Source of the DNA: Candidatus Nanohaloarchaea archaeon
GTDB taxonomy: Archaea; Nanohalarchaeota; Nanosalinia; Nanosalinales; Nanosalinaceae
Assembly (NCBI GenBank): GCA_041640035.1
Contig: JBEQBC010000002.1
Span: 64,001 to 128,000, forward strand
Reading direction: 5' to 3'
DNA: 64,000 bases
The notes under the pieces are model-generated. The model was given only the letters and a program-made list of their open reading frames with translations. It did no database searches and was not told where the DNA came from. Within the stretch, counting starts at the first letter, position 1. Each line of letters begins with the position of its first letter. A program made the position numbers and the translations under genes. Below, in pieces: positions 32,472-57,312 of the stretch.

Positions 32472-33905
32472 ATGGAAAAGACTCTCTTGGTAGTCATAGA
32501 CGGATTCGGAGTAAGAGAAGAAACACAGGGAAACGCAGCCAAGCAAGCAGACACACCAAACCTCGACAGATTGAAGGAACAATACAACTACACCGAGCTA
32601 GAGGCCTCCGGACCTGCCGTAGGACTGCCCGAAGGATACACAGGCAACTCAGAGGTCGGCCACCTACACCTAGGTGCCGGACGAACAATACCACAGAGAC
32701 TCACCCGGATCAACCAAGCAATCGAAAACAACGAACTGAGGGAAAAAGAAGCACTGAAAAACGCCTTCCAGAGAGCCGAAGAAAAAGAAGTACCAATCCA
32801 CCTAGCAGGAATTATCAGCGACGGAGGAATACACGGACACATCAATCACCTCAAAGCACTGCTTCAAATATCTACTAATTATGATGTAGAGGTTAAGATC
32901 CACTGCTTCACAGACGGACGAGATGTCGCACCAAAAAGCGCAGAGAATTTCCTAGACCAGATAGAAGACTGGACAGAACAGTATGGTGGGCAGATATCTA
33001 CCGTCATGGGTCGTTACTACAGTATGGACCGTGATCACAACTGGGAGCGAACGCATAAAGCATACCAGGCTATGGCGCAGGCAGAAGGATTCGAGTTCAC
33101 CGACCCGCGTGAAGCGCTCGATGAGACTTATGATGAGGGTGACTACGATTACTTTGTTATCCCTTCAGTGAACGAAAACTACTCAGGTATGAAGGATGAC
33201 CACGAGGTGGTTTTCTACAACTTTAGAGCTGATCGTGAAAGACAGATTGAGGAGGAACTAGTTTCAGATGTTGACCCTGATGAGTTTGACGAACCGGTTC
33301 ATCCAAAATTTACTTCGATGTTCCGTTACGAGCATGAAATCGAGAACCCTGCGATCTTCGAGAAAAAGATAGTTGAAAACACCTTGGGAGAGAAGCTTGA
33401 AGAGAAAGGTTATTCGCAGCTGCGTGTAGCGGAGAGCCAGAAACGACCTCACGTAACATTCTTCTTCAACGGTCAGAGAGAGCTCAAGTTCGAACACGAG
33501 GAACGCCACTTCGTTGAATCCGACAAGATTAAGGCCTATGATCAGAAACCGGAGATGCACGCAGATGATATTACCGATGTAGTTCTGGAAGCTATGGAGG
33601 AAGGTGAGAAAGACTTCATACTACTGAACTTTGCGAACTGCGACCTAGTCGGTCATACAGGCGATATGGAGGCTGCAGTAACAGCAGCCGAAACAGTTGA
33701 CAGAAATATCGGAAGATTAGTAGATAAATTAGAGGAAACTGAGTACAGATTCATCATAACCTCTGATCACGGGAACTGCGAGGATATGGGGACTAAAGAC
33801 AGTCCTAACACTTCTCATACAACGAATCCTATTCCCTTGTTCTCCGATATAGATATAGAGAGTGATTTGGAAGGTATTACTGATGTGAGGAATTTGATTA
33901 CATGA
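32472..33905 (+). CDS. gpmI: 2,3-bisphosphoglycerate-independent phosphoglycerate mutase
   Basis: IDGFG, GNSEVGH, FTDGRD, GRYYSMDRD, NFRADR, DLVGHTG and SDHGN. Confidence 0.96.
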   Translation: MEKTLLVVIDGFGVREETQGNAAKQADTPNLDRLKEQYNYTELEASGPAVGLPEGYTGNSEVGHLHLGAGRTIPQRLTRINQAIENNELREKEALKNAFQRAEEKEVPIHLAGIISDGGIHGHINHLKALLQISTNYDVEVKIHCFTDGRDVAPKSAENFLDQIEDWTEQYGGQISTVMGRYYSMDRDHNWERTHKAYQAMAQAEGFEFTDPREALDETYDEGDYDYFVIPSVNENYSGMKDDHEVVFYNFRADRERQIEEELVSDVDPDEFDEPVHPKFTSMFRYEHEIENPAIFEKKIVENTLGEKLEEKGYSQLRVAESQKRPHVTFFFNGQRELKFEHEERHFVESDKIKAYDQKPEMHADDITDVVLEAMEEGEKDFILLNFANCDLVGHTGDMEAAVTAAETVDRNIGRLVDKLEETEYRFIITSDHGNCEDMGTKDSPNTSHTTNPIPLFSDIDIESDLEGITDVRNLIT

Positions 33906-35160
33906 TTCTAGGGATATCTTCGGGCCAGCATCTTGTTAGGATTGGATTATCTTGTACATAGTCCGTGGTAGGTGTCATTTCCTCAATCTGCCAGTCAACA
34001 GGAGAGTTTACCGTTGCAGCATCTTCATCAGTGAACTCTTCTCTCACCTGTAGGAATAATTTCGTTATTTCCCAGTCGTCTTCCTGAGGTGTGGAGCACG
34101 TAGGCAAGTTTGCCTGCTGCTGCAGGTCAATAGTAGCATTTAGAGGGCATATATCTCCGCAGTTCTCCCCTACCGTCACATTATCTAAGACCATTTCCTC
34201 CATAGCTCCCAGATTATCTTCAGAGCCGTTAGGATATACCATCAGCAGACTCACATTTTCCACATTTCTCCGATCATTGGAGAGATCCACTGTAATGTTA
34301 ATCTCTTCCTCTTGTCCGATCATGAAGTTATTCTGATCTACCTCCATTTCTCTAAGGAACATCTGTCCATTGCTGAAGGACGGTAAAGCATTACCTGTCC
34401 AGCAATCGTTGAACCGGGTATCTCTCAGATTCAAAGATTGATTCATTACCGTGACCCAAGCCTGCTTGTTCTGGAAATTGTCTCCGTTTCTATCCTCAAA
34501 TACCTGGATGAAAACTCTTTGACTGAACTGAGATTGATCTCCATTTAGGTGATCTTGACAAGGTGTCAGGTCTTCAGACATGTTTCCTGGTTCCGAGTAT
34601 GTGAAGTTGTTGCTTACTTCACAGGTTTCTTGATCATGGCAGACATTCCCTACATCTCCACCCCAGTGAATCGTACTATCTGTGCTGTCTGCGCTTTTCG
34701 GATAGGCAACCTGAAAACCTACGGTATAGTAGTAATCAGAATTATACTCGAATGTCCCGTCATTCCACTCGCTTCCGCCATATTCATCAAGATATTCTTG
34801 TCCATCCAGCTCCTCAAGATTTATTTCATAATTGTAGTTTTCCTCAGAATCGTATACTACATATGAAGGCCATGCACCTATCGCTATACCATCCATTTTG
34901 GTAACGCCGTTATCTGCATCTTCTATCTCGAAATTCTGGATATTACCATATATCTCGCCGCAGCCCATCTCTTCGTATTCTTCTTCCTGACCTGTTTGAC
35001 CTAATCTAGTACATTCTGACTGGTTCTGAACACCTGAGGAGTATCCTGATAGAAAGTTGGTTTGTCCAAATACAAATGTAGCAGCAAAGGCTGCTGAAAT
35101 AAATGTGACGAGCAGAACCACCATAGAAGAGGTTACTTTATTCAATTGTATCACCCGCAA
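33898..35160 (-). CDS. Large pilin-like/adhesin protein with N-terminal hydrophobic helix
   Basis: Last gene of the pilin-like operon; single N-terminal TM and a Cys-containing extracellular domain. Confidence 0.6.
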   Translation of the reverse strand: MRVIQLNKVTSSMVVLLVTFISAAFAATFVFGQTNFLSGYSSGVQNQSECTRLGQTGQEEEYEEMGCGEIYGNIQNFEIEDADNGVTKMDGIAIGAWPSYVVYDSEENYNYEINLEELDGQEYLDEYGGSEWNDGTFEYNSDYYYTVGFQVAYPKSADSTDSTIHWGGDVGNVCHDQETCEVSNNFTYSEPGNMSEDLTPCQDHLNGDQSQFSQRVFIQVFEDRNGDNFQNKQAWVTVMNQSLNLRDTRFNDCWTGNALPSFSNGQMFLREMEVDQNNFMIGQEEEINITVDLSNDRRNVENVSLLMVYPNGSEDNLGAMEEMVLDNVTVGENCGDICPLNATIDLQQQANLPTCSTPQEDDWEITKLFLQVREEFTDEDAATVNSPVDWQIEEMTPTTDYVQDNPILTRCWPEDIPRIM

Positions 35161-35411
35161 GATATGTCGACATTGTCACAGTCCTGAAGGTTATCCCAGA
35201 GGTCTGTATCTCTTCCTTCAGTTATCATCTCGCCATCTTCACAGAACTTTCTCTCGTAATTAGATTCCCATAAAGAACACTGAGCATTGGAAGTGGTGTC
35301 GTTAGAAAAATTCGTAAACCCCTCTGTTTGACCGGTCATAAAACCTATCACCACTACCGCACCGATCATCAAGACCATGAGAACTACCACTATCTCCATG
35401 GTCTTGTCCAT
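35151..35411 (-). CDS. Pilin-like protein (no leader)
   Basis: MDKTMEIVVVLMVLMIGAVVVIGF, then C...C. Confidence 0.7.
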   Translation of the reverse strand: MDKTMEIVVVLMVLMIGAVVVIGFMTGQTEGFTNFSNDTTSNAQCSLWESNYERKFCEDGEMITEGRDTDLWDNLQDCDNVDISCG

Positions 35412-35417
35412 GACTCT

Positions 35418-35663
35418 TTACACCGACACTCGATTTATTTGAGAGTTTACTTCCTCAGTTATCTCATACATTTCATATCCCTCTTCCTGATAAGAGGTTG
35501 GGATGTCATTAAGTTCATCAGATAAGTTTCCTTCAACATCCCCTCTCTGTTCATCTATTGAGTCTCCAAATCCTCCTATCTGAGTGTTAGCCATGGCTAT
35601 GACTATTACAGCAGCCACCATCAGTACCATCGCGACTAACACTAACTCCATGGTTTTATCCAT
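35418..35663 (-). CDS. Pilin-like protein (no leader); paralog of 35151..35411
   Basis: MDKTMELVLVAMVLMVAAVIVIAM. Confidence 0.7.
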   Translation of the reverse strand: MDKTMELVLVAMVLMVAAVIVIAMANTQIGGFGDSIDEQRGDVEGNLSDELNDIPTSYQEEGYEMYEITEEVNSQINRVSV

Positions 35664-36020
35664 CTAGCTATCATCTTCTCCTGTACCTTCTAAACCGGAT
35701 GAATCAGACTGTGCGCTCGCAGATGCACATGTAATTGTAGAACTTCCTCCACCCGAGTCTACTGCATTATAACTATTGATTGTCGTACCAGCTACTCCTT
35801 GACACTGTGTAGGTTTACTTATAGATCCTCCAGGGTTCAAAGAGCATTTGGTCTCAACCTGTGCTTTGCATCCCTGTGAACTGGTGCTGTCGAAGAGATC
35901 TGTTAGGCTTCCTTGTGCCATGAATACGATTATCAGTGCTGTCATCATCAGTACGGATGCGGCTACGATTAGGGTTAGTATTTGTGACATTCCTTTGTGA
36001 GAGGAAAGTTTATCCATCAT
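35664..36020 (-). CDS. Type IV pilin with class III signal peptide (candidate major pilin)
   Basis: HKG|MSQILTLIVAASVLMMTALIIVFM followed by Cys pairs. Confidence 0.8.
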   Translation of the reverse strand: MMDKLSSHKGMSQILTLIVAASVLMMTALIIVFMAQGSLTDLFDSTSSQGCKAQVETKCSLNPGGSISKPTQCQGVAGTTINSYNAVDSGGGSSTITCASASAQSDSSGLEGTGEDDS

Positions 36021-36113: not shown

Positions 36114-36407
36114 TTATGCCTGGGATAGGTTCAGTTGGATACTTGAGACATTGAGTTCTTCTCCTTCATCGGTCTCAATCTGGTCGGTTCCTGTCTCGAT
36201 GTCATCTACTTGTACATCTTCGAGGAAACGGTTCTTCACAATTTCTACTACATCTACTGCTCGGCTGATTGCTTTTCCACGAGCCTTTACATGAACCGTT
36301 TCATGTCCTTCTGTGAACTGGGTTACTACTGCCAGTACATAGCTGTAAGCTGGCTTGGAACCGACATATACTGTGTTGTCGTCTTCTTCTACTTGGTCGT
36401 CTGCCAC
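36114..36407 (-). CDS. albA: Chromatin/RNA-binding protein Alba
   Basis: [27 protein letters not shown] and VSSIQL. Confidence 0.96.
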
Positions 36408-36455: not shown

Positions 36456-37718
36456 CTAGTATGGCCATCCTGCATTAATAGTATGGTTGTATTGGAAATT
36501 GAACGGAATGTTGGTCTCTCCATCATGTGTTATTACAGGCTCTTCATTGTCAGTCATGTCTATTTCAGCTTCGTATTTCGCCAAGCTGACATTGTAATCA
36601 TAATCTATCTGAACTAAGACATCGGGATCGCTTTCATGATCATGAGTGTGACTTACACATGTATCTCCTGGGGGAACATACCCTGTGCAGTCCCAAGATG
36701 GATCTTGGTAGGTATCACCGAATGAATCACTGTCCGAGTGATCGTGGTCACCGGTACAATCCTCGTTATCACAGGTGGTATTTAGATGAGAGTGAGTCAA
36801 ATCACATTCCACCTCAGTCGCATTGTTAGGGTTATCCTCTCTAGGCCACCAAGATGAGGATTCGTCGCTTTCTACATCTATATAGTCGGATTTATCAGTT
36901 CTATCTACAGCGCCTTCAACAACTCCCTGTATGTTATCAACTGCGTTCTGTCTGGCATCCTTGTGAACAGATTCTCTCTTAGACTCTCTTTGGTCGCTTG
37001 TAGGGTCACAGTTTGAAGTTGTTCCTGAATCAGTTCCCCAGGTCTGTGTTTGAGTCATTTCTTCTCTTATGGCCATTGTCAGGTTTCTTGCATATCTTGA
37101 AAGCTCAATATAGTTGTGCGGTATTTCTTGGTCATCGTCTACATCTGGTCCTCGGATGCTATTCATTTCTACTTCTTGGAAGGCTTTTGTCTCCCATCTG
37201 CTTCCTCCGCAGGCAACTATCTTTTCATCTACACTATATTCGAAGACCCAGTCTCCTCCAAAGGTCGATTCTTCTATATCGTAGTAATCAACATTTGGTG
37301 TTTTACTACAGCCTAAATAGTAATCATTAGATCTTAACCCATATTGAGAATGTGCAACTATAGTTTCATTGAACCTGTGCATCAAATAATCCCTGCTGGG
37401 CATGTGAGTTTTGTTCCAGTCCGCATATGAACCGTTTTCGCCTAAGACTAAAGCAGCATTATTTATGGCAAACTCTGCTTGATTATGCATGTAACCCGGG
37501 AACTCTTGAGAGCGCATCTGGGTTTCAGCTACCACCCCCATATCACCCTCGAAATAACTGAACACGAAGTTCATCTGCGTTCTTGCAAAGAGTGTTGTGA
37601 ATAGAGATCCGCCCGAGATAAAAAGCAGCGTTACAACCACGAGTATACTTAGGAACTGGCCTTTGCTGACTTCTGATCTTTCGTAGAGGTTTTTCAACTT
37701 ATTAATGATAATCACCAT
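36456..37718 (-). CDS. Large minor pilin/adhesin with class III signal and His/Cys-rich C-terminus
   Basis: SKG|QFLSILVVVTLLF; start moved to MVIII. Confidence 0.7.
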   Translation of the reverse strand: MVIIINKLKNLYERSEVSKGQFLSILVVVTLLFISGGSLFTTLFARTQMNFVFSYFEGDMGVVAETQMRSQEFPGYMHNQAEFAINNAALVLGENGSYADWNKTHMPSRDYLMHRFNETIVAHSQYGLRSNDYYLGCSKTPNVDYYDIEESTFGGDWVFEYSVDEKIVACGGSRWETKAFQEVEMNSIRGPDVDDDQEIPHNYIELSRYARNLTMAIREEMTQTQTWGTDSGTTSNCDPTSDQRESKRESVHKDARQNAVDNIQGVVEGAVDRTDKSDYIDVESDESSSWWPREDNPNNATEVECDLTHSHLNTTCDNEDCTGDHDHSDSDSFGDTYQDPSWDCTGYVPPGDTCVSHTHDHESDPDVLVQIDYDYNVSLAKYEAEIDMTDNEEPVITHDGETNIPFNFQYNHTINAGWPY

Positions 37719-38262
37719 AACCTGGATGCCGGTTTGTAGAGGGTGTCGTCGATCCAGAAGGCTCATACGCCTGTGCTACAGATCCATCGATATTAAGAGT
37801 GACATAGACTGTATCGCCCTCAGGGGAAGCTATATTTGCTCTTGCGTGATCGCTTCCCATCCATACCTGCGAACTGCTTACATTATAATCATCGTGATCT
37901 GGATAGTTGATGTGGAAATCATACTCGAAGTTGTCTCCTCCAATAGGCATATATCTACGGACCACTGTACGGATTTCATCTTCCTTATCACTTCTTGAAT
38001 CAGCGTAAGGAAGTTCTCGTATTTCTGATCGAGTTAAATTTGATTCAAGGATTTGATTTAGCATTATTTGGGCTTGGAAACCCTTCTGATTCTTATTGAG
38101 TTCTGCATTTAGACCTGCGTCAAGTTGTGAGTCTTGAAGCCAGTAACCAGCTAGCAACATCATTAAAATCATAGGCACCATTCCTACCGCCAAAGCTGCT
38201 ATTCCTATCTGGCCTTGTAGTCTTTCAGACATCTTTCTTGTGATTATATTTTCTTTAATCAT
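37702..38262 (-). CDS. Pilin-like protein
   Basis: RLQG|QIGIAALAVGMVPMILMMLL. Confidence 0.65.
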   Translation of the reverse strand: MIKENIITRKMSERLQGQIGIAALAVGMVPMILMMLLAGYWLQDSQLDAGLNAELNKNQKGFQAQIMLNQILESNLTRSEIRELPYADSRSDKEDEIRTVVRRYMPIGGDNFEYDFHINYPDHDDYNVSSSQVWMGSDHARANIASPEGDTVYVTLNIDGSVAQAYEPSGSTTPSTNRHPGYGDYH

Positions 38263-38696
38263 TTTTCCACCCCTATATACAGAGGATGATCATCATTAGA
38301 TATTCTTAAAGGCGCTGAACGGACATAACCGGACGGATTTACGCATTCTGATTTCATGGACATATCTACTTGTTCTAAAGAATTCCAAAAACCAATTTCA
38401 AGCGGTCCAGAAGGTTTAAAGTGGCCCTCCCCATCTACCGTACACTCGCTTCCTGTATCTCTCAATGCATTGTCTAAATCTTGACCATCTGAAAAGTGGC
38501 CAAAGCTATCTGCATTGTCGTGAGAAAATACATGCATTAAGCCGGCAGTTTCCCATGTTGCCTCTGTGTAGGTTGTGCTTACTCCGCCAGCAGCTTCTCT
38601 GACCATTGCTGTTTGCATCTGCACCACTGCATTTATTATGAAAAGAAGGAATACCGTTCCAGCGATTAAGGCAAAGACATTACGATCCATCAGCAC
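38259..38696 (-). CDS. Pilin-like protein
   Basis: N-terminal hydrophobic helix; coupled within the operon. Confidence 0.6.
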   Translation of the reverse strand: MLMDRNVFALIAGTVFLLFIINAVVQMQTAMVREAAGGVSTTYTEATWETAGLMHVFSHDNADSFGHFSDGQDLDNALRDTGSECTVDGEGHFKPSGPLEIGFWNSLEQVDMSMKSECVNPSGYVRSAPLRISNDDHPLYIGVEK

Positions 38697-39121
38697 TTAG
38701 ACCTGTATATGTGTACTACGGGATCTCCTGAGGTTTTATTTAGGCAGTAAAATCTTGAGGGTGATTCGGACTCTTCATTTCGTAGATTGAAGGATCCTGG
38801 CGAGTCTGGAGGATCGAAGGGGGATATCTCTCTTTCTCCATTGAAGGTGAACGATATGTAATACTGTTTGTTCTCTTTGAATAGTGCATAGCCTCTACCA
38901 TAGTCTAGTTGTAGCTTTATATCATCCATAGCCGATACACCATAGACAGTTCTTTCCATCCTCTCTGAAGCCATTCCAACCGATTCACTTCTTATTACTC
39001 CTCCAACATCCACAAGCATTGAATTTGCTATCGTTGCTATCAATCCTACCAGCATAAATGTAACTATTGCAACTGCCATTGTTTCAAAAGTTCCTTTCCT
39101 GGAGTTGGAGGATATTCTCAT
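38690..39121 (-). CDS. Pilin with class III signal peptide
   Basis: SRKG|TFETMAVAIVTFMLVGLIA. Confidence 0.75.
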   Translation of the reverse strand: MRISSNSRKGTFETMAVAIVTFMLVGLIATIANSMLVDVGGVIRSESVGMASERMERTVYGVSAMDDIKLQLDYGRGYALFKENKQYYISFTFNGEREISPFDPPDSPGSFNLRNEESESPSRFYCLNKTSGDPVVHIYRSKC

Positions 39122-39522
39122 TGTCCTTCGGATATATCGTATAGATCTTCCCCATCATCGTTTTCTTCAGATTCTATCGTGTAGCCACTCCATGAGCTGT
39201 CTATAGTGGTTCTTGAATCTACCTTACAGGCCATTTTTCTTTCTTCCAGTGTTTCACCTTCTGGGTTTGTCAGTGTGTAATTATCGTAATTAAGTGTTAA
39301 TTCATAGCCATCCTGTAGATTTATCGTATTCGTGACCTCGTCTTCGTTTCCACAGACATTTCCTATGTCTTCAACGAGATTATTGGTAGAACTTCTGACA
39401 GCACCTTTCTGCTGGGCGCTCACTGAGCCTATTATTATCTGAGGCATGATAATGAGAGCCACTGTCAGCCCAATAGCTCCCGCCACCACATTAGACATTG
39501 TAACCGGACTTTGATTGGTCAT
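39118..39522 (-). CDS. Pilin-like protein
   Basis: Hydrophobic N-helix, then L...I..VC typical of archaeal minor pilins. Confidence 0.65.
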   Translation of the reverse strand: MTNQSPVTMSNVVAGAIGLTVALIIMPQIIIGSVSAQQKGAVRSSTNNLVEDIGNVCGNEDEVTNTINLQDGYELTLNYDNYTLTNPEGETLEERKMACKVDSRTTIDSSWSGYTIESEENDDGEDLYDISEGQ

Positions 39523-39749
39523 AGCTGCACCTCTATTCTTTTAGATTCTGTCTTAGGATATACTTCATCATTTTCATCACTAATAATAAAATCTAGATTT
39601 TGGCCTCTGCTATCGTCCTCTGCTCTTTCTGTAATATTGCCTACACCTTGTTCTCCTAGGTCAATTCCTCCGGAAATCATGCTGTAGATTATGGTTATGA
39701 CTATTACTGCTAATACTACTGCCATTGCAACTGCGGTTTCATGATTCAT
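39519..39749 (-). CDS. Small pilin-like protein (no leader)
   Basis: MNHETAVAMAVVLAVIVITIIYSMI. Confidence 0.65.
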   Translation of the reverse strand: MNHETAVAMAVVLAVIVITIIYSMISGGIDLGEQGVGNITERAEDDSRGQNLDFIISDENDEVYPKTESKRIEVQL

Positions 39750-39764
39750 TCATTAACACCATTT

Positions 39765-39896
39765 TTATTCTAAGGTCATGAATTCCGATAGGAATCCTTC
39801 AAATCCTCCTGTGTTTTGTTGTAAAAGCATAACTATCATCAAGAGTATCATTGCTCCAAGTAAAAGTGATACTACAAATCGGAGGGAAAAATCCAT
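39765..39896 (-). CDS. 43-aa pilin-like micro-protein
   Basis: Hand translation MDFSLRFVVSLLLGAMILLMIVMLLQQNTGGFEGFLSEFMTLE; fills the operon gap. Confidence 0.7.
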   Translation of the reverse strand: MDFSLRFVVSLLLGAMILLMIVMLLQQNTGGFEGFLSEFMTLE

Positions 39897-39927
39897 GTAT
39901 CTAGATAGGGTTTCGCCAGTTTTTATT

Positions 39928-41643: not shown

Positions 41644-41682
41644 AACTATAGAATTGCTTTCTCTATTGTAAAAGGTACCGGA

Positions 41683-43158: not shown

Positions 43159-43159
43159 G

Positions 43160-47905: not shown

Positions 47906-47938
47906 TATTATTCGGGGTTTCCTAAATTAAAAGATACG

Positions 47939-48349: not shown

Positions 48350-48408
48350 AGTGTGTATGATTTAATAACGGGCGGAACCAAAATGTTTTCTAGAGGTAAT
48401 CCTGATAA

Positions 48409-49332: not shown

Positions 49333-49426
49333 GAATTCCTTCTCGTTTTCTATTTCCCAAATTTTTCTCTTTCTAAACAATTCTTTCTAAATAAAATCTA
49401 GTTGAGAGAAGAAACTAGAGTTTTTC

Positions 49427-49939
49427 CTATTCTGACTGTCCTGCTGTCAGAGCCACGAGAGCTACTATCATCAGCAGTATAAGTATTGGCATGACTACTT
49501 CCTCGAATATCTTGCTCCAGTTCTCTATGTCCGGAATGATGTTGGGTATTCCGAAGAAGTTAGATATTATAGCAAGTAGTGCTACTACAAATATTCCTGC
49601 ACCAAGAATGAGAGGTAGGGATCTATCATTATCCTGAAGGTTCTCCAAGTCATATCCTGCTACTCCGAGCACGATCATCAGGCCGATTACCGCGAAGATG
49701 CCGAAAGTAGCTGCTGCAACTACATTAGTCAGAAGTCCTGCCGGAATAAACATGTAAGCTCCTCCACCAGCCATGAAAGCTATAGCTAGAGATATCGAGC
49801 CATTGACAAACTCATCTTCACTTATGAAATGGTATTTCTCTAGCACACCGTAACTTACTGCTAGTACGAGTAACCATGGGAAGAAGAATCTGAATATCTG
49901 CATTTCTGCCATGGTCTGGATTATCTGCTCGAAAACCAT
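49427..49939 (-). CDS. Multi-pass membrane protein (paralogous family)
   Basis: FFPWLLVLAVSYGVLEK...NGSISLAIAFM; about 5 TM. Confidence 0.75.
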   Translation of the reverse strand: MVFEQIIQTMAEMQIFRFFFPWLLVLAVSYGVLEKYHFISEDEFVNGSISLAIAFMAGGGAYMFIPAGLLTNVVAAATFGIFAVIGLMIVLGVAGYDLENLQDNDRSLPLILGAGIFVVALLAIISNFFGIPNIIPDIENWSKIFEEVVMPILILLMIVALVALTAGQSE

Positions 49940-49946
49940 GACTGGT

Positions 49947-50558
49947 TTATCCTCCTCCGGAGCCGCCGGCTAGTTCATCGAACAGTTTTCCAGGCGAGAA
50001 ACTACTACCGGCGTCAGGATCTGACAGTGTCCAGTAGATCAGCCCTGCTACTACCAGTACCCATATTAGTCCTGAATCAACTGTGAAGTTGATGAACTGT
50101 TCCAAGCCCTCACTGTTGATGTTATCCGGTATGAATATTCTTCCTCCTCCTGTTACGAAGAAGGCCAGTACTACGATACCAGTTAGTATCAATCCGTAGA
50201 TACCTCTGGACTCACTGTCTCCAGTGCCGATATCTAGGCCGATGAATGCTAGTACGACCAGTAACCCGAGCAATCCTATTACGGATACTGCTATTGCTCC
50301 AAGGTACTCTACGAAGAAAGTCTGGTAGGCTGGGTTCCTTACGAGGAACTGTGCTACGAAGAATGCGAATACTACTGAAAGCGTCGCTGCGAACTTGTTG
50401 TCTCCGTCCTCTTCCTCGAATAGAGGTATTCGTTTGAGTGTGAGGAAGAAGAGTACATATGCCACTACGAAGGGCAGGAGACCTGAGAAGAATCCGTTCT
50501 CCGCCATTATTTCTAGGAGGTTGTTGAACCCTCCTGCACCTGCGTCGTGGCTAGTCAC
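49947..50558 (-). CDS. Multi-pass membrane protein (paralogous family)
   Basis: LLPFVVAYVLFFLTLKRIPLF...NKFAATLSVVFAFF. Confidence 0.75.
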   Translation of the reverse strand: MTSHDAGAGGFNNLLEIMAENGFFSGLLPFVVAYVLFFLTLKRIPLFEEEDGDNKFAATLSVVFAFFVAQFLVRNPAYQTFFVEYLGAIAVSVIGLLGLLVVLAFIGLDIGTGDSESRGIYGLILTGIVVLAFFVTGGGRIFIPDNINSEGLEQFINFTVDSGLIWVLVVAGLIYWTLSDPDAGSSFSPGKLFDELAGGSGGG

Positions 50559-50564: not shown

Positions 50565-50822
50565 TTATTCACCTTGTTGATCTAGGTAGTGGCTTACTTT
50601 TCGGTTTAGTAGCCATAGTTCTCTACCTATGATCATTAGTCCAAGCATGACGATCCATGGCTGGATGTCTCTTCCGAATGATACCATGGTTGCTTCCTGT
50701 GATGAGTAGAATGCTGTCCATAGAGCTACCGCGATCGCTCCGAATGATAGGATTACGATTACGAGTTCGTCTAGGATGTTTTCTACATTGTATAGGTAGT
50801 TTCGGAATCTTTTGGAGTCCAT
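50565..50822 (-). CDS. Small 2-TM membrane protein
   Basis: Two hydrophobic helices; operonic spacing. Confidence 0.7.
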   Translation of the reverse strand: MDSKRFRNYLYNVENILDELVIVILSFGAIAVALWTAFYSSQEATMVSFGRDIQPWIVMLGLMIIGRELWLLNRKVSHYLDQQGE

Positions 50823-51017: not shown

Positions 51018-52064
51018 TTAAACCGATGTTGCCTTCTGCGTTGTTTCTGATTTCGCTGGAGTTTCCGGGGTTTGAGGTGTTTCTCTGGTCTGCTGTACTT
51101 CCAGATGCTCCATATATCTATTTTCTGCTGGAGCGTATTCTTGGTCTTCTGATCTGGCTGCTATGTAGTCGGAGATCTCTTGGTTTACATCTACTTCTTC
51201 AGAGTACATTTCATTGATAGCAGTACCTGGGTCAGAATTAACTTCTAAGCCGACTATCTCGCCATCGGGAGTCTTCATGTAATCGAATGCGGCTACCTCT
51301 AAGCCTTCAGTTGCCTGTATTGCTGCATCGATTTCATAGTCAAATATATCTCCCGGATCTGTGTATTCTCCGCCGTTAGCTATATTGTTAGCAATTCCTT
51401 CTCCATCTTCACGGGCAGCTATCTCTAGCACGGTGGCATCTTCTCCATCACCTAGCACTAGTGCACGACAGTCTTTGAAGCCTTCTTCATGCGGTACAGA
51501 TTCTTCTAACCTGTATTCTTCTCTATCAAATTCCTCAAGATATTCTTCCAAGGTCTCGGATTCTTCTATTTCCGTGATTCCGTTCCCAAAAGAGCTTCTC
51601 GCTGGTTTTGCGATAACCTGATCGTCTTCAAGCACCTCAAAAGCTCCTTCTTCAGAATAGCTTTCAGCCATTCGGACATTTTGGAGGTTACTAAATGATT
51701 CTTCCAGCATTTCAGAAGTCCTGTTCTTATCGTTATGGAACCAAGACATCAAAGGATCTTGTATAAAATCTATATCCTGGTCTTCTACTGCCGCAGAAAC
51801 CTGCTCAGCTATTTCTCTGCTTTCTTCATCATCCATTCCTGAAGTAAATTTTTTGTGGCGATAGAAAACTGTTTGATCATCTATTTTTTCTAATTCGTCT
51901 ACAGATGATACATCGGTTACATCGTACCCCTGTTCATCCAGTTCTTCAACAGTCTTTTTCCTGGTCGGTGTATCTACTTCGCCTGCGTACAGTATATCTG
52001 CCTCTTCAACATCTGTTTCTCTTATTATATCATGTACGGTTCTGTCGAAGAGCCATCCAAACAT
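51018..52064 (-). CDS. RimK-like ATP-grasp ligase
   Basis: NDK, VIAKPARSSFGNGI, DCRALVLG, NNIANGG, FDYM and LEVNSDPG. Confidence 0.85.
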   Translation of the reverse strand: MFGWLFDRTVHDIIRETDVEEADILYAGEVDTPTRKKTVEELDEQGYDVTDVSSVDELEKIDDQTVFYRHKKFTSGMDDEESREIAEQVSAAVEDQDIDFIQDPLMSWFHNDKNRTSEMLEESFSNLQNVRMAESYSEEGAFEVLEDDQVIAKPARSSFGNGITEIEESETLEEYLEEFDREEYRLEESVPHEEGFKDCRALVLGDGEDATVLEIAAREDGEGIANNIANGGEYTDPGDIFDYEIDAAIQATEGLEVAAFDYMKTPDGEIVGLEVNSDPGTAINEMYSEEVDVNQEISDYIAARSEDQEYAPAENRYMEHLEVQQTRETPQTPETPAKSETTQKATSV

Positions 52065-52098: not shown

Positions 52099-53709
52099 TT
52101 AGAAGGAGTCCTTCCAGTTCTCGAGACCCTGAATAGCGTCATCTATCGCTGCGATCAAGTCCTGATCATCATCAATCTCGTGGTTGTTTGCGTTATGAAG
52201 AGCTCTGAGATCGTCTCTCAGATCTGCGAGTTCGTTCGGTATATGAGTATTCACCAGTTCGTTTACATCACTGTCCGGGAATTCAGGGTTGTTGCATCCT
52301 GTATCCGTGTTCAGGTCGTCGATGATATCACGGATATCTGAAAGGTATGCATGTATATCACCGGAGTTGGAGTGGTTCTGTATGTCTCCAATACGGGATT
52401 CGATTTCGGTCTTCTCTGAATTGCTTATCTGCAGCTCGTCCTTGAGTACAGATTTCAAGTCCTGTAACTGTCTCTTTATAGTTCCTTTGCGGTTCTTGAG
52501 TTGTTCAAGAGAGTTCTCCAAGGCTTCTTCGTGCTCTTCCATTCTACGGGCTCTGTTGAAAAGTCCTTCGTTGTCCAGTTCCTGTGCATAATCTTCTATC
52601 CTCTGTTCGTAGTCCTCAACCTGATCTACATCCTGCATCAGAAGGTTGATGCCTTTCAGTGATTTTGTGACGGTTTCGGCTTCAGCTATCAGTTTGTTTA
52701 GTTCATCGTCCAGGTTTGAGGTTACATGTTCCTCTTTCGTTTCTATCCTCTCGACTGCATCTATTATTGTTTCAAGCTCCTCCTTTGCATCAATCAAGCC
52801 GAATTCTTGATACCGGGATGGAAGGTCCATCGTACCGAGGTCAGTGTTCTCCAACAGTCCTCCTCCGCCTAGAATCATGTCCGGATGCAGGTTGTCTAGG
52901 TTTGGGTTGGATCCGCTGGAGGAGTTGTTTTTGAGCTTGGTGAGTTTTCCACGCATATGGTTAACTCCGGCTGTCAGGTACTTTATCCGGTTATTTACAT
53001 TTTCGTAATCTCTGCTTGCGTTCTTAACACCGTTGATAGCATCGTTGATGTGATCTATCTCCGAGCTCAGGTCTTTGGCTGCGTTGTTCATCGCTCCTTC
53101 TATATGGTCATCTGAGTCGTCTATTTCTTCTACTATCGATTCGATTTCTGCTTCTGTCTGTTCAGGTTGGTCCTGTACATTTCCGTCACCGACATTTCTT
53201 AGTCTCTGACCTGCTTCCCTTGCTTCCTCTATACCGTAGTTCAGGGCCTTGCCTGTTTTTCCTGCTGTCCAAGCTGCACTTGCTGCTCCACCTCCTACTA
53301 CTGCAATCAGGAGGGCGATTACTCCGAAGAAGAGTGCTCCTACTAGCATCATCTGGATGTCCCAGACGAATCCCATAGCGTGACCGGTGCCTAAAATAGA
53401 CAACACTGTCAGAAGCGCAAGTACCGCCAGAAGATTCTTTTTATCGTCATCCTGAACCCCTGAAGATTGAAGGTTGAATAGCTCTTCTATCTCGAGTTTG
53501 ACGACGATTTTCTTCATGATCATGTAGACAGAGAGCCAGATCAAGCCAAAGGTAGCAGCAAGGCCTAGATTGTGAACCATATCTCCCTGTGTAAGTCCAA
53601 GTGCACTTATTATGCCGGTAATATCTGTTAGAGAAGTGCTTCCGCCATGATTTGCTGCTGCTAAAGGTGTTGCTAAAAGGGTCAAAGTTGAAAGTAGTTT
53701 TTTCTTCAT
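52099..53709 (-). CDS. Signal peptide + 3-TM + long acidic coiled-coil protein (paralog 1)
   Basis: AAANHGG, ATFGLIWLSVYMIMKK, GGGA..GK..KA..YG..E, then about 370 aa of helical tail. Confidence 0.78.
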   Translation of the reverse strand: MKKKLLSTLTLLATPLAAANHGGSTSLTDITGIISALGLTQGDMVHNLGLAATFGLIWLSVYMIMKKIVVKLEIEELFNLQSSGVQDDDKKNLLAVLALLTVLSILGTGHAMGFVWDIQMMLVGALFFGVIALLIAVVGGGAASAAWTAGKTGKALNYGIEEAREAGQRLRNVGDGNVQDQPEQTEAEIESIVEEIDDSDDHIEGAMNNAAKDLSSEIDHINDAINGVKNASRDYENVNNRIKYLTAGVNHMRGKLTKLKNNSSSGSNPNLDNLHPDMILGGGGLLENTDLGTMDLPSRYQEFGLIDAKEELETIIDAVERIETKEEHVTSNLDDELNKLIAEAETVTKSLKGINLLMQDVDQVEDYEQRIEDYAQELDNEGLFNRARRMEEHEEALENSLEQLKNRKGTIKRQLQDLKSVLKDELQISNSEKTEIESRIGDIQNHSNSGDIHAYLSDIRDIIDDLNTDTGCNNPEFPDSDVNELVNTHIPNELADLRDDLRALHNANNHEIDDDQDLIAAIDDAIQGLENWKDSF

Positions 53710-55298
53710 TATAGATCAGCGAATTTGTTCAGTAGTCGTTCTTCGGCTGCTTCTTCCTGTTCGTTCTGCTGTTCGATTTTCTCTAGGTGCTCTCCAATCT
53801 TGTTGAGATTGTCTTGCATGTTCTCCATTCTTCTCCAGGCTTGCGGTGCATAATCACTGTCTCCGATGTTTTCCAAGACATTCTTCTCGAGAGCTTCTAT
53901 CTGATTGAGTATTCTGCCGTCTTCTTTTACGAGCGTTTGAAGCTGCTGAATCTCTTCCTCTTCAAGTTTTATTTCATTCTTGATTAGGTCTTTGGCTCTC
54001 TCGATGAGTTCTTCCAGTCTCTGTTCTTCGCTCATTAGTTCTTGGTAGTAGCTCTTCATCTGCTCGATTTCTTTCTCTTCCTGTTCAGCTTCTTTGTATA
54101 CTTTCTCGCTCCCCATCTCTTGAGAGATGCTTTCGAGATATTCATCTAGCTGTTCAGCCTCGCCTATCTCCTGTTTAATCCTGCTGAGAAGATTCTGAAG
54201 GACGATAAATTCTTCAAGCTTGTTGACTAGGATATGGACCTCATCTTCCATTTCTTCCTCTTCTTTGGTTTCCAGAGATTCGATAAGTTTGATATCCTCT
54301 TGGACTCCCTTTAGTTCTTCATCTATTGTCTTGAGGCCTTTGAAGCTGTCTACAAACCCTCCTGGCGCTACCTGGTTTTCTGTTGCTCCTTTTCCTAACC
54401 CTGAAGCGGAAAGATTGTTCTCATGCGAGTTCTCCAACGAACTATTAGCTTTGTTTAGTTCATTATTGACATCATCCAGTCTTGCTTTAATATCCTTGAC
54501 GCCTTTCTCTTCTTTCTGATCCTGCTTAAGAATCCTTTGTGCGTCCTCAATAGCCTGCTCGAACTCATCCAGATCCTTCTTCATCATTCCGGAAAGAGTT
54601 TTTTCTGATGATTCCACAAGTTCGATTACTTTCTCTACATCATGGGCGGCTTGATCTGATTCTTGCTCGGGATCTTCACTTTGACCCGAAGTCACATCTT
54701 CTTCTTCATGTTCTGCTCTTGTTGCTACATCCTGAGCCTGAGTGGTCCGGTCTCTAACCGCTTCAATATCCTGATTATCGTACTCATCGCTGCCTGCGTT
54801 AGCCCCTTCATCAAGTTCATTAAGTCCCCATGCACCTGCTTTGGCAGCTTTACCGGTGGAGAACATGAAGAGACCTGCTCCACCACCTAAAACCAGAATT
54901 ATCAGAGAAGCTACCAAGAAGCCTACTGCTAACAGTAGTGTTTGTTGAATAGTATCTATTGTGAATCCGAGGTAGGTGTGTGATGCACCTGCTGCAGAAA
55001 CAACTATTAGAAGAGATAGTACTGCTCCTAGGTTTCTGCCGTCATCTCCGTATGTGCCACCTCCCATGTTGAAGAGGTCTTCGAGTTCGAATCGCATGAT
55101 CAGTTTCTTGGTTATCATGTAGACTGTGAACCAGATCAGTGCGAAGGTTGCTGCGGAGATTGCGATCTGTCTCCAGTTATCTACAGGGAATGGAAAGTTG
55201 GAGATTAGACCGATTAGTCCTCCGGACCCTCCGTGGTTCGCGGTTGCGATTGATGTGAAAGCCAGTAAAAGTGAGGAGAAGATGGCTTTTTTGTTCAT
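53709..55298 (-). CDS. Signal peptide + 3-TM + long acidic coiled-coil protein (paralog 2)
   Basis: ATANHGG, ATFALIWFTVYMITKK, GGGAG..GKAAKA..WG..E, then a coiled coil. Confidence 0.78.
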   Translation of the reverse strand: MNKKAIFSSLLLAFTSIATANHGGSGGLIGLISNFPFPVDNWRQIAISAATFALIWFTVYMITKKLIMRFELEDLFNMGGGTYGDDGRNLGAVLSLLIVVSAAGASHTYLGFTIDTIQQTLLLAVGFLVASLIILVLGGGAGLFMFSTGKAAKAGAWGLNELDEGANAGSDEYDNQDIEAVRDRTTQAQDVATRAEHEEEDVTSGQSEDPEQESDQAAHDVEKVIELVESSEKTLSGMMKKDLDEFEQAIEDAQRILKQDQKEEKGVKDIKARLDDVNNELNKANSSLENSHENNLSASGLGKGATENQVAPGGFVDSFKGLKTIDEELKGVQEDIKLIESLETKEEEEMEDEVHILVNKLEEFIVLQNLLSRIKQEIGEAEQLDEYLESISQEMGSEKVYKEAEQEEKEIEQMKSYYQELMSEEQRLEELIERAKDLIKNEIKLEEEEIQQLQTLVKEDGRILNQIEALEKNVLENIGDSDYAPQAWRRMENMQDNLNKIGEHLEKIEQQNEQEEAAEERLLNKFADL

Positions 55299-55336
55299 GC
55301 AGTAGTTAATCCTCTCCTTCTTTAAATTAATTCACC

Positions 55337-55783
55337 TTAGAAGATGGCTTTGAATCCCCAGTAGAGAACTAGGAGTCCTACCCCTATGAATATTATGTAG
55401 GTGAGTCCTCCGAAGACTACGAATATCAGTTCGTTGATATCTTGGAATAACTGGGTTGGAACCAGCATGAGTGAAACTGCCAGAGCGATTAGTGTGGCGT
55501 ACTTGTTTCTCTGTTTTCTGGCCTGTTCTCTTTCACTGTGCCATTCGTCTTCAGCGCTTAATGCGAATTTTAGGGCTTGTTTCAGTCCGATCTGGAAGAT
55601 GAAGAATATCAAGAGGAATGGTGCTACAAGTTCCGTTAGTATCTCTGCCTGAGAATCGTAATGCGGTATCTGGAGGTTCTCGTATGGGTTTCCTCCACCA
55701 CTGTGAAATGAAGCGGCTGCTGTTGAAACAGTGATAGTTAGTAGTAGAATGATTGAGAGGTATTTAGTCAAAGTCGAAGTCAT
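55337..55783 (-). CDS. Signal peptide + 3-TM protein (short family member)
   Basis: AAASFHSGG, LVAPFLLIFFIFQIGLK...NKYATLIALAVSLM; start moved to MTSTL. Confidence 0.72.
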   Translation of the reverse strand: MTSTLTKYLSIILLLTITVSTAAASFHSGGGNPYENLQIPHYDSQAEILTELVAPFLLIFFIFQIGLKQALKFALSAEDEWHSEREQARKQRNKYATLIALAVSLMLVPTQLFQDINELIFVVFGGLTYIIFIGVGLLVLYWGFKAIF

Positions 55784-56033
55784 CGCCGCCACCTCCCATG
55801 TCGCCGCCTCCGCCGATATCTCCTCCACCACTTCCGCCGCTACGGGCGTGTTTGATGTAGGCCGGCAGCATATCATCTATTACGAAGCCGACTATGAGTC
55901 CAACTATTGCGGCTGCTGCGTATTCTCCTGGCAGGGGGAGTAATGAATCAAAGCTTCCTCCTAGCATATCTGCTGCTCCGACTGCTGCGATAGAGGCTAC
56001 GGGATAGGCGACGAATTCCCAAGGGTCCTTCAT
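55764..56033 (-). CDS. Small membrane protein with Gly-rich acidic tail
   Basis: AAIVGLIVGFVI...RSGGSGGGDIGGGGDMGGGGDDFDFD. Confidence 0.72.
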   Translation of the reverse strand: MKDPWEFVAYPVASIAAVGAADMLGGSFDSLLPLPGEYAAAAIVGLIVGFVIDDMLPAYIKHARSGGSGGGDIGGGGDMGGGGDDFDFD

Positions 56034-56136
56034 ACAAAAATTGTTTTTGAAGGAGAGTTATTAAATTACTTGGAGCCTGGCTACGGCGTCTGTAAGCAAA
56101 ATTTATATAAGCAGAAAACGGGTTATTACGGTCTAT

Positions 56137-57312
56137 ATGGGTCTACTTTCAAGCGCTAAGAATCAGATCAACAAAGCGAAAAAATCTATGGGAAATGTAA
56201 AAGACAGGCTAAGCCGTGTAGCAAAAGGCGAGCAAGAGCTTCAAGACGAGATGAACCACTACCAGGATCTTGAAGGACAGGTGGAGGATGACCTTAGACA
56301 GGGAGATAGAAATGTAGCAGATGAAGAAGCTCAGAAACTTGAAAGCGGAGAAATGGAAGCTGCAGAAAGACTGGAAAACCTAGATGAGGAGATGCTGGAG
56401 ATCTTCAAGCAAAACATGAGAGAGGTAAAGTTGACCGCGAATGCCATGAAGGAAAGAGATCAGTTTGAGGAAAGGACTAGGAAGAAGGTGCGACAGATCG
56501 CGAACGAACATAAGGAATTTGATGAGAGACTAAAGCAGGCTTCTCAAAATCTTGAAAGATATATTCAGGAGTCCAAACAGAATAGCAATAGAATGACTAG
56601 AGGTGAAGTCGGTAGAGAAGCACAGACCGACCAAGGTAAGAACTGGCAGGACCTAGAAGAAGAGGCCGAGCACATGAGAGATAGTATCAACGATGTGGTA
56701 AGAAGAGAGAACAACATGCTTGAGCTCTTGAATGCTGAAGAAAAAAGCATGGAAGAATTCAAGGAAGAGTGGGAAGAAAGCCTTAAAGAAATGAAAAAAC
56801 TCAGAAACGAGGTTCAAACTTTCTATGGTCAGGAGCAGGAAATGGAGAAAATTGCAGAAGAGCTTGGCGACAGCGATTTAATGCAGAAAGTAGCTCAGGG
56901 AGAGGAAGAAGCTAAACAGATCAAGCAGACATTCAAGGAACTTGATAGCCGTATCGAAGAAATCGAACAGATGCTGGAGAAGATGGAACAGGAAGACGAT
57001 TCAATCGTAAAGCACCAGAGTAATGTCACCAATAGAGCTGAAGAAATCCTTGAGATGTCTAAAAACGCTAGAAGGCAAGTTGCAGAGGTAGAGAACATAG
57101 TTGAACGAGATAATTATGAGCATCTGGAGTTCACCAGCCCTGAAAAATGGGAGAAAGAGATAGAGGTCATCAACAAATCTCTCAACAATGTTGAAGAACT
57201 TGTGCAGAAGTTCGAGGAAATCGAAGATCAGGAAATTAAGATTGAGGAACAGGAAGAACAGGTTATTGAAACCGAAGCACAGGAGGGCGCTCAGGCAGTC
57301 GGAGACGACTAA
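56137..57312 (+). CDS. Soluble long coiled-coil protein
   Basis: 391 aa of E/Q/K-rich heptads with an amphipathic basic N-terminus; TTTATATA box upstream. Confidence 0.75.
   Translation: MGLLSSAKNQINKAKKSMGNVKDRLSRVAKGEQELQDEMNHYQDLEGQVEDDLRQGDRNVADEEAQKLESGEMEAAERLENLDEEMLEIFKQNMREVKLTANAMKERDQFEERTRKKVRQIANEHKEFDERLKQASQNLERYIQESKQNSNRMTRGEVGREAQTDQGKNWQDLEEEAEHMRDSINDVVRRENNMLELLNAEEKSMEEFKEEWEESLKEMKKLRNEVQTFYGQEQEMEKIAEELGDSDLMQKVAQGEEEAKQIKQTFKELDSRIEEIEQMLEKMEQEDDSIVKHQSNVTNRAEEILEMSKNARRQVAEVENIVERDNYEHLEFTSPEKWEKEIEVINKSLNNVEELVQKFEEIEDQEIKIEEQEEQVIETEAQEGAQAVGDD

Follow-up and report, generated by a model that had tools for sequence, protein, structure and literature searches.

How DPANN archaea attach to their hosts and take up resources from them is an open question, for which there are few candidate systems that extend across phyla. 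One of these candidates lies in the 64,000-nucleotide stretch of DNA analyzed here (hereafter, the window; positions 64,001 to 128,000 of contig JBEQBC010000002.1 in the Candidatus Nanohaloarchaea archaeon assembly GCA_041640035.1), which is part of a genome of 978 kb in 24 contigs that is 89% complete. A reading made from the sequence alone (the original prediction) had treated the 23.4 kb at positions 33898–57312 as a single envelope apparatus, consisting of an adhesive or secretory pseudopilus plus a membrane channel or scaffold. We asked which of the 28 open reading frames (ORFs) of this block belong together and what kind of machine they encode. Our answer, to which we assign a probability of about 0.6, is that the block encodes an archaeal type IV filament machine (pilus-like and non-archaellar) with a conserved accessory module, of the Locus 2 kind reported for cluster-2 DPANN archaea by Hamm et al. 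2024 (Nat Commun 15:6449, PMC11291902; this and the other papers cited were available to us in part, and are cited for those parts).

From low to high coordinates, the minus strand of the block carries ORFs of 420, 86, 81, and 118 amino acids (aa), Alba (97 aa), ORFs of 436, 186, 145, 143, 134, 76, 70, 500, 491, and 71 aa, a platform protein (727 aa), and an ATPase (754 aa). After a 33-bp gap, the plus strand carries the genes of two cytoplasmic coiled-coil proteins, CCP1 (136 aa) and CCP2 (307 aa). Beyond CCP2, the minus strand resumes with ORFs of 170, 203, and 85 aa, an ATP-grasp protein (348 aa), and ORFs of 536, 529, 179, and 89 aa, and a plus-strand coiled-coil gene (391 aa) closes the block. 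The encoded proteins are strongly acidic (isoelectric point 4.0–5.3 for 25 of the 28 ORFs), and the top homologues of the ATPase are labelled, for example, Candidatus Nanohaloarchaea, Ca. Nanohalobium constans, and Ca. Nanosalina; both features agree with the DPANN assignment made originally. Apart from the ATPase, the platform, Alba, and the ATP-grasp protein, no ORF of the block had a family match above a cut-off. Pfam gave no match to archaellin, FlaH/KaiC, or chemotaxis families among the 28 ORFs, and the statement that the block is not an archaellum therefore stands. Within the genome, BLASTP paired the 500-aa with the 491-aa protein, the 536-aa with the 529-aa protein, and the first 32 residues of the 86-aa and 81-aa proteins.

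The ATPase (45641–47905, minus strand) belongs to the PilB/FlaI/VirB11 family according to Pfam and NCBIfam. Its residues 422–595 match T2SSE (PF00437; E = 3.9e-16, 59 bits; cut-off 24.9), and the protein sequence includes a Walker A motif (GTRGAGKTS). The best NCBIfam models were FlaI (141.4 bits; equivalog cut-off 550) and TadA (TIGR03819; 121.5 bits; cut-off 373). Since both scores lie below the equivalog cut-offs, the protein is placed in the secretion-ATPase superfamily, as neither an archaellum nor a Tad equivalog. The nearest paralogues in the genome (513 and 565 aa) align to it by BLASTP only from residue 244–278 on, indicating that the ATPase has about 190 extra N-terminal residues, and the long N-terminal extension described originally was thus borne out. 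Full-length orthologues with this extension (44–99% identity) occur in 61 of the 70 genomes of the class, the other nine having paralogue-level matches only.

An alignment of the N-terminal extension from 30 sequences of two phyla had a mean column identity of 54%. No Pfam family was found in residues 1–240, the profile of the extension retrieved nothing meaningful from PDB sequences, and the homologue search returned nanohaloarchaeal proteins among the 120 matches listed. In the AlphaFold2 (AF2) model, the extension consists of an alpha/beta domain and a helical bundle (predicted local distance difference test score [pLDDT] 80.8). This model had no Foldseek match in PDB at E ≤ 1e-3, and its best VIA-align match was confined to the helical bundle, with a Z of 8.7 that is usual for generic bundles. 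Prediction of a complex of CCP1, CCP2, and the extension gave a score of 0.00 (mark, 0.32), which counts neither for nor against binding. In about 11 of the 70 class genomes, the orthologous ATPase carries inteins at its P-loop region, giving frames of 1125–2013 aa. These orthologues split the query at residues ~491–496, and the window ATPase has no intein. Pfam confirmed Intein_splicing and LAGLIDADG domains in both cases checked (L036:4447–10458 of genome G001, with two inteins, and L034:12679–16461 of genome G007).

The platform gene (43451–45634, minus strand) encodes a polytopic protein of the TadC/FlaJ type with two T2SSF-like halves, as judged from Pfam and its transmembrane (TM) segments. 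A double-T2SSF platform had been proposed, and its C-terminal half was confirmed by a match to T2SSF (PF00482) at residues 470–597 (E = 2.4e-6, 27.9 bits; cut-off 25.2). The match of the N-terminal half (residues 169–301) covers profile positions 2–124 of 125 but is weak and below the cut-off (E = 0.036, 14.5 bits). To compare the neighborhood, we fetched ~30 kb around the ATPase from 20 relatives, and orthologues of the platform protein, 32–62% identical, were present in all of them (20/20).

About 15 co-oriented pilin-like genes had been counted in the block. We found 14 co-oriented ORFs with an N-terminal hydrophobic helix, the fifteenth being Alba, and a canonical class III [KR]G motif with a hydrophobic core was present in four of them (the 118-, 436-, 143-, and 71-aa ORFs). 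Directly downstream of the platform gene lies the 71-aa prepilin-like protein (43160–43375, minus strand), with the class III sequence RKG/VQAVPFIIGLIIALL... (the slash marking the site). It is of the size of Flp and is a candidate major subunit. Its family profile has 13 members in three families of the class, and it matches DUF7299 weakly (E = 0.002, below the cut-off). Three small pilin-like genes with an N-terminal helix (86, 81, and 118 aa) are located at 35151–36020 on the minus strand. The 118-aa ORF, with a canonical HKG/MSQ class III motif, is the best conserved small subunit, and its family profile matched 40 ORFs in the relatives' loci, typically beside Alba. Two paralogous large pilin-like proteins of 500 and 491 aa (6 and 8 Cys, respectively; 40141–43158, minus strand; 26% identity, E = 3e-21 by BLASTP) are candidate adhesive or minor subunits. 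Their family occurs in eight same-family relatives, in which the N-terminus bears the canonical KG motif. The seven ORFs with an N-terminal helix at 36456–40140 (minus strand; 436, 186, 145, 143, 134, 76, and 70 aa) are fast-evolving: they have almost no tblastn matches in the relatives, although the corresponding position there is filled by similar genes in equal number.

The prepilin peptidase is encoded outside the locus. An A24 peptidase of the PibD/FlaK type was found on another contig as a 277-aa ORF (C1:167005–167838), whose match to PF01478 at C1:167470–167811 is above the cut-off (E = 1.4e-10). The third ATPase of the genome (513 aa) adjoins this peptidase gene and a 343-aa coiled-coil/helix-turn-helix-like gene (C1:167000–170500).

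Two coiled-coil genes had been described as diverging from the ATPase gene with a 33-bp gap, and the gap runs exactly from 47906 to 47938. This AT-rich region is common to the ATPase and CCP1 genes, and the corresponding gap is 31–48 bp in relatives of the same family and ~47–107 bp in Aenigmatarchaeota. Neither CCP1 (47939–48349, plus strand) nor CCP2 (48409–49332, plus strand) has a signal peptide, a class III motif, or a TM helix. Among 24 CCP1 sequences from two phyla, an RRIRxLEE start and an NPxxSxFVT motif near the C-terminus are conserved. These terminal motifs are kept beyond heptad periodicity, and the Pfam matches of CCP1 were to generic coiled coils only. According to the alignment of family members, CCP2 consists of a tandem UBA/RecX-like three-helix (GYSxxEI) region, a low-complexity Q/N/G-rich linker, and a conserved C-terminal coiled-coil domain.

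We compared the two proteins with known families. At E ≤ 0.01, 14 of the 25 CCP2 members matched FlaC_arch (best E = 1.9e-6), 10 matched RecX_HTH1, and 10 matched DUF7310. The CCP2 of the window is itself below every cut-off (FlaC_arch, 19.5 bits against 27.8). DUF7310 (PF23991; cut-off 40 bits) was matched below the cut-off by CCP2 (23 and 19.2 bits) and CCP1 (19 bits), and at E ≤ 0.01 by 8 of the 24 CCP1 members. CCP1 and CCP2 aligned with each other over 61 columns (hhalign 57%, E = 1e-4), which possibly reflects coiled-coil similarity only. When the CCP2 profile was compared with PDB sequences, its N-terminal region matched designed three-helix proteins and Cbl UBA domains, and its coiled coil matched reovirus sigma-1 (6GAO; E = 0.0012, 22 bits) at rank five. 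The matches with which sigma-1 is ranked include designed helical proteins, keratin, haemagglutinin HA2, and a mimic of spike HR1. Since the sigma-1 match stands among generic coiled coils, the sigma-1 resemblance of CCP2 is generic. Comparison of CCP2 with named ESM Atlas clusters (0.83) was uninformative.

Next to CCP2, on the minus strand, are the genes of two paralogous membrane proteins with ~5 TM helices (170 and 203 aa; 49427–50558). In iterated profile searches over the relatives' loci, the two proteins merged into one large unnamed family (hereafter, the 5-TM family), which is a conserved accessory membrane component. Among 1.84 billion cluster representatives, its profile matched 2760 (E ≤ 1e-3), of which 1297 reached E ≤ 1e-10; many of the matched proteins are non-acidic. 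The AF2 model is all-helical (pLDDT 73) and had no Foldseek match in PDB at E ≤ 1e-3. The nearest ESM Atlas clusters are unnamed proteins of Woesearchaeota/Nanobdellota (0.90), which is a lead only. Two operons of related membrane proteins had been proposed to follow the coiled-coil genes. The proteins are related within each operon, but no relation was found between the operons: by hhalign, the 5-TM family showed no relation to the 179-aa/536-aa family (probability 1.6–2%) or to the 85-aa protein.

To examine whether this accessory module is linked to the motor elsewhere, we compared its position in the 18 relatives whose contigs continue past the ATPase start. CCP1 and CCP2 diverge from the ATPase gene in 16 of the 18, and two or three copies of the 5-TM family come next in 15 of those 16. 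In the other two, G010 and G001, the CCP position is taken by a second platform gene and additional pilin-like genes. The 5-TM family is present in 60 of the 70 class genomes. Scored together with the ATPase, both were present in 59 genomes, neither in 8, and the presence was discordant in 3 (G062, G008, and G016), all of which are fragmentary (72–81% completeness). In 50 of the 59 genomes with both, the genes are on one contig within ~3 kb; in six they are split at contig ends, and in three (G010, G001, and G020) they are truly separate.

These rearranged genomes are more telling on linkage than co-absence. In G010 and G001, the CCP1-CCP2 and 5-TM genes are located together on another contig, flanked by 8–10 pilin-like genes. 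Only 38 bp separate CCP1 of G001 from the end of the last pilin-like gene, which precedes it on the same strand, and G020 has two 5-TM genes beside another platform gene. The ATPase gene of G010 (L030/L031) and G001 (L036/L037) is itself located between two divergent platform genes (690 and 737 aa, and 686 and 707 aa, respectively), each of which has pilin-like genes after it. In these genomes, a single motor may serve both platforms.

Outside the class, loci were retrieved using a 7-sequence subset of the 5-TM family, because the wide 30-sequence alignment was too divergent. The retrieval reached Aenigmatarchaeota only. Among 20 loci obtained, 19 were archaeal (the named ones being metagenome-assembled genomes of Aenigmatarchaeota), and one was a chance bacterial match. 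Twelve loci, in which the sequence extends at least ~9 kb upstream of the match, were assessable, and the other seven archaeal loci had less than 5 kb upstream. CCP1 and CCP2 were found in all 12 assessable loci (12/12), the ATPase with the same N-terminal extension in 11 (profile E = 1e-55 to 1e-71), the twelfth being cut at the locus edge, and the platform in seven, the rest again being cut at the locus edge. The gene order was platform-ATPase, then divergently CCP1-CCP2, zero to four small membrane proteins, and three or four 5-TM genes; in L062, the intergenic gaps were 54, 37, 4, and 0 bp. The proposed linkage of the 47.9–57.3 kb genes to the pilus genes in other genomes thus holds for the 47.9–50.6 kb part, in 50 of 59 class genomes and, for the CCP genes, in 12 of 12 Aenigmatarchaeota loci.

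For the genes at 50.6–56.0 kb, the linkage is weaker and consists of their presence in 9 of 11 same-family genomes together with weak to moderate matches in Aenigmatarchaeota. An 85-aa small membrane protein (50565–50822, minus strand; from TM prediction) is encoded in 9 of the 11 same-family genomes and in none outside that family. Paralogues of 536 and 529 aa (52099–55298, minus strand; 27% identity, E = 2e-28 by BLASTP) have a signal peptide, an HGG motif, three TM helices, and a coiled-coil tail of ~380 aa, and gave only generic coiled-coil/SMC-type matches. They are followed by a 179-aa protein, whose likely start is Met32 at about 55783, and an 89-aa membrane protein with a Gly/Asp-rich tail (55337–56033, minus strand). 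The 179-aa protein aligned with the signal-peptide/first-TM region of the 536/529-aa proteins (hhalign 91%, E = 9e-7, 73 columns) and is, as judged from sequence, the membrane domain of this family without the tail. K/R-rich segments follow the first and third TM helices in the 536-, 529-, and 179-aa proteins, and by the positive-inside rule the long tail of the 536/529-aa proteins is read as cytoplasmic. Counting that of the window, 9 of the 11 same-family genomes have the 536/529-family, 179-aa, and 89-aa genes at this position. The 85-aa, 536/529-aa, 179-aa, and 89-aa genes were not found in G037, G061, or the genomes fetched from other families. With the profile of the 179-aa/N-terminal domain, signal-peptide/3-TM proteins of Aenigmatarchaeota were matched weakly to moderately (jackhmmer E = 1.5e-13, 9e-9, and 6e-7, in a small database). 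These proteins are encoded between CCP2 and the 5-TM genes, and a shorter form of the signal-peptide/3-TM component may therefore be ancient. Directly after the predicted signal-peptide cleavage site, the 536-, 529-, and 179-aa proteins (52099–55876) carry HGG-type motifs (ANHGGS, ANHGGSGG, and SFHSGGG, respectively), and a His so near the mature N-terminus could bind a metal.

Other genes of the block are more sporadic. The ATP-grasp ligase that had been noticed (51018–52064, minus strand) was confirmed by a match to PF08443 (E = 1.6e-8, 34.8 bits against a cut-off of 21, profile positions 2–188 of 188). The RimK-like protein scored 45 bits on TIGR00768 (cut-off 143) and is therefore outside the RimK subfamily by NCBIfam. 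Its gene, a sporadic accessory gene, occupies this position in 3 of the 11 same-family genomes. The 391-aa coiled-coil gene (56137–57312, plus strand), which gave weak SMC/Rad50-type matches only, had been included in the apparatus. This was not borne out: no counterpart was found in the loci of the 20 relatives or in four close genomes (two of the same genus), and the gene is strain-specific, its membership of the system being unsupported. At the other end, a 420-aa Cys-rich protein (10 Cys; 33898–35160, minus strand) has an N-terminal hydrophobic helix, no Pfam or NCBIfam family, and no canonical class III motif. This strain-variable gene has no counterpart in the syntenic regions of the 20 relatives and was found in one of the four close genomes. 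In that same-genus genome, the gene product is 74% identical and the gene contains an in-frame TAG, although the ATPase is 99% identical; no copy of the gene was found in the other same-genus genome. Divergence at this pace is in keeping with a protein that is exposed and faces the host, and the 420-aa protein is a possible surface or tip subunit. Alba, a chromatin protein (36114–36407, minus strand; PF01918, E = 5e-21), is 63–81% identical at the same place in relatives; it is co-oriented with the cluster and inside it, yet unrelated to the machine. Hence, the ATP-grasp, 391-aa, 420-aa, and Alba genes are not conserved parts of the machine.

Beyond the block, a 78-aa gene and the genes of diphthine synthase and a Trm5-like methyltransferase are located at 57334–59354 of the window and also in L056, L059, L062, and L066. 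Further along, two adjoining acidic ORFs (124 and 244 aa; window 59501–61926) share a similar N-terminal stretch, MSAED.FE.LELA.DDHY, and the 383-aa ORF after them has a twin-arginine-like start. These look like a small paralogous family, to which no function is assigned.

From these results, the core at 36456–50558, leaving out Alba and adding the pilin-like genes at 35151–36020, is very probably a type IV filament machine, and the accessory module probably belongs to it. We propose the following mechanism. A hexamer of the ATPase would dock on the platform and drive prepilin-like subunits from the membrane into a filament. The prepilin peptidase encoded on another contig could cut the class III signals, which at least four of the 14 ORFs carry. 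The likeliest bulk subunits would be the 71-aa and 118-aa proteins, and the likeliest exposed, host-contacting subunits would be the large, Cys-rich, fast-evolving proteins of 420–500 aa. CCP1, CCP2, the 5-TM proteins, and the signal-peptide/3-TM proteins would together form a scaffold that is anchored in the membrane and surrounds the motor on the cytoplasmic face, and in which the 3-TM proteins of this family would be lengthened by long cytoplasmic coiled coils. Such a scaffold would be a functional counterpart of ArlX or ArlC/D/E of the archaellum and of PilMNO/GspLM of bacteria, and not an external attachment fibre. From location and this analogy, the role of the module as a cytoplasmic-face scaffold is proposed tentatively, with the family-specific coiled-coil extension as a plausible part of it.

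Several observations weigh against this interpretation. Filament assembly by the locus is predicted from its genes. A canonical cleavage motif is absent from 10 of the 14 pilin-like ORFs, and the two halves of the platform align weakly with each other (hhalign probability 4%). The FlaC_arch, DUF7310, and RecX matches of the coiled-coil proteins are weak and may mirror coiled-coil or helical composition only. As neither the N-terminal extension nor the 5-TM family has informative structural relatives, the scaffold role is drawn from location and analogy. Adjacent genes vanish together with a missing contig, so their co-absence is weak evidence, and the motor and the CCP/5-TM module are physically separable in G010 and G001. 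Finally, diphthine synthase, the 78-aa gene, and the Trm5-like gene are syntenic beside the locus in both phyla, and conserved order alone is consequently no proof of shared function. Gene order here is anciently conserved irrespective of function, to a depth unusual for unrelated housekeeping genes.

This synteny of housekeeping genes across phyla also favors the idea that the CCP1-CCP2/5-TM/3-TM-coiled-coil module is an independent system for membrane skeleton, remodelling, or division, which neighbors the pilus genes by ancient gene order only. In two genomes, the module stands apart from the ATPase and the platform, and Pfam, NCBIfam, and Foldseek gave no sequence or fold link to a known pilus component. 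However, the module abuts pilin-like or platform genes in every rearranged case and is apparently co-transcribed with pilin-like genes in G001 across the 38-bp gap. It also shares with the ATPase a divergent control region of 33 bp, which is short in relatives too, and the two occur together in 59 genomes with 3 discordant and 8 lacking both. We therefore consider an independent system unlikely. The opposite view, in which the whole of 33898–57312 is one apparatus of pseudopilus and membrane channel or scaffold, including the ATP-grasp, last coiled-coil, and 420-aa genes, appears very unlikely, even though all genes but three are on one strand and tightly packed, eight complete same-family genomes retain the gene order between phosphoglycerate mutase and diphthine synthase, and the membrane domain of the 179-aa and 536/529-aa proteins has weak relatives inside Aenigmatarchaeota loci. 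Alba sits inside the block, and flanking housekeeping genes show equal synteny within the family. The ATP-grasp gene is in 3/11 same-family genomes, the 391-aa gene in 0/20 relatives and 0/4 close genomes, and the 420-aa gene in 1/4 close genomes. The proposed membrane channel found no counterpart, since nothing resembling one appeared in the family or fold searches. Accordingly, the original idea of a single envelope apparatus was retained for the core and abandoned for the end genes (420 and 391 aa), the ATP-grasp gene, and Alba.

The product of the machine could also be of another kind. A short pseudopilus for uptake or secretion of DNA or protein (Com-like or type II secretion-like), acquiring nutrients or nucleic acids from the host, would suit the 14 diverse minor-pilin-like genes, none of which is obviously a single abundant major pilin, and Hamm et al. 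2019 (PMC6642349) discussed these genes among candidate interaction mechanisms. No nuclease, ComEA/ComEC-like, or secreted-substrate gene was recognized in the block by Pfam and NCBIfam, the large, Cys-rich, fast-diverging ectodomain proteins fit adhesion better, and scanning electron microscopy shows pilus-like stalks between nanohaloarchaeal and host cells (PMC11803251), all of which makes a pseudopilus quite unlikely. Hamm et al. 2024 suggested that the coiled-coil proteins resemble the reovirus sigma-1 attachment fibre, based on predicted structures, and detected them in proteomes; in that case, they would be exported and the pilus machine would serve as their secretion or display system. 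The CCP2 profile does match 6GAO, but fifth in rank, with 22 bits and among generic coiled coils. Moreover, CCP1 and CCP2 have none of the signals or TM helices expected of an exported fibre, and CCP2 starts with UBA/RecX-like three-helix repeats typical of cytoplasmic proteins. We regard export as a fibre as highly improbable. A bolder form of the scaffold proposal is that the CCP1, CCP2, 5-TM, and signal-peptide/3-TM(-coiled-coil) families form an undescribed stator- or scaffold-like complex specific to cluster-2 DPANN archaea, which would be read by the N-terminal extension of the ATPase and adapt the pilus machine to a stable symbiont-host junction, by which the hosts are held and exploited; we hold this to be rather unlikely.

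With the type IV filament machine and its accessory module as the preferred interpretation, the candidate machine is narrowed to the N-extended ATPase, the platform, the pilin-like genes, two cytoplasmic coiled-coil proteins, and the large unnamed 5-TM family, and this core is now set apart from family-specific and strain-specific additions. The argument that the coiled-coil proteins are internal rather than surface fibres shifts the choice of suitable experiments. Candidates for determining host specificity are the large subunits, which diverge fast.

Among known systems, the Tad/Flp pilus shares with the locus a CpaF/TadA-like ATPase match, a TadC-type platform, and a Flp-sized pilin-like protein (71 aa). 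In contrast, the ATPase scores 121.5 bits against the 373 of TIGR03819, no Flp match was found at E ≤ 0.01, the platform is one fused two-domain protein instead of TadB plus TadC, and there is no secretin or other Tad accessory gene. The archaellum resembles the locus in having coiled-coil proteins (ArlC/D/E) at the cytoplasmic side of a FlaI-type ATPase and a FlaJ-type platform, in line with the FlaC_arch matches of 14 of 25 CCP2 members. ArlX is a membrane-anchored coiled coil, like the 536/529-aa proteins. The archaellum differs in that archaellin, ArlF/G, and ArlH are absent from the block and the ATPase reaches 141.4 bits against the FlaI cut-off of 550.

A likeness in composition is offered by halobacterial subclade 4F, in which a secretion ATPase and a TadC-like platform are combined with several PilA-like and minor pilins and with an accessory coiled-coil protein located in the cytoplasm. 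Makarova et al. 2016 (PMC4858521) described the intracellular coiled-coil protein arCOG07564 as a component of 4F and found the 4F ATPase clade also in nanoarchaea, without identifiable pilins. The available description in that paper does not include the 5-TM family or the N-terminal extension. CCP1 and CCP2 differ as well, since they score only 19–23 bits on DUF7310, with a cut-off of 40. DUF7310 may correspond to arCOG07564, which is a guess on our part.

In DPANN archaea themselves, Makarova et al. 2019 (PMC6393860) reported "dark-matter" pilins beside an ATPase and TadC, and Hamm et al. 2019 (PMC6642349) detected FlaI-, FlaJ-, and archaellin-annotated proteins in a proteome. In a nanohaloarchaeon with pilus-like stalks, archaellum/type IV pilus genes were upregulated (iScience 2025, PMC11803251). 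According to Hamm et al. 2024 (PMC11291902), cluster-2 DPANN archaea conserve two type IV pilus-like loci that include coiled-coil proteins, and filament proteins were placed in Locus 1 only. Our genome has a second pilus-like locus at C3:26000–42000, with GatE, a thermosome, a P-loop NTPase, a coiled-coil gene, three archaellin-like pilins, a 565-aa ATPase, and two TadC-like genes. As this second locus matches Locus 1, the window locus corresponds to Locus 2. Like Locus 2 of Nanohaloarchaeota and Aenigmatarchaeota, it has a CpaF/FlaI-like ATPase, a TadC-like platform, and adjacent coiled-coil genes, a correspondence known from gene content and not from locus tags. It differs from the published Locus 2 in that 14 pilin-like ORFs (four canonical) follow the platform, and in that we read the coiled-coil proteins as cytoplasmic and not as sigma-1-like fibres. 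The text of Hamm et al. 2024 makes no mention of the 5-TM family, the signal-peptide/3-TM/coiled-coil family, or the N-terminal extension of the ATPase, which its supplements may cover, and the available part of Makarova et al. 2019 does not mention the accessory membrane families either. Therefore, the kind of system is already described, and what is new here is the definition of its accessory families and the case for coiled-coil proteins that remain inside the cell.

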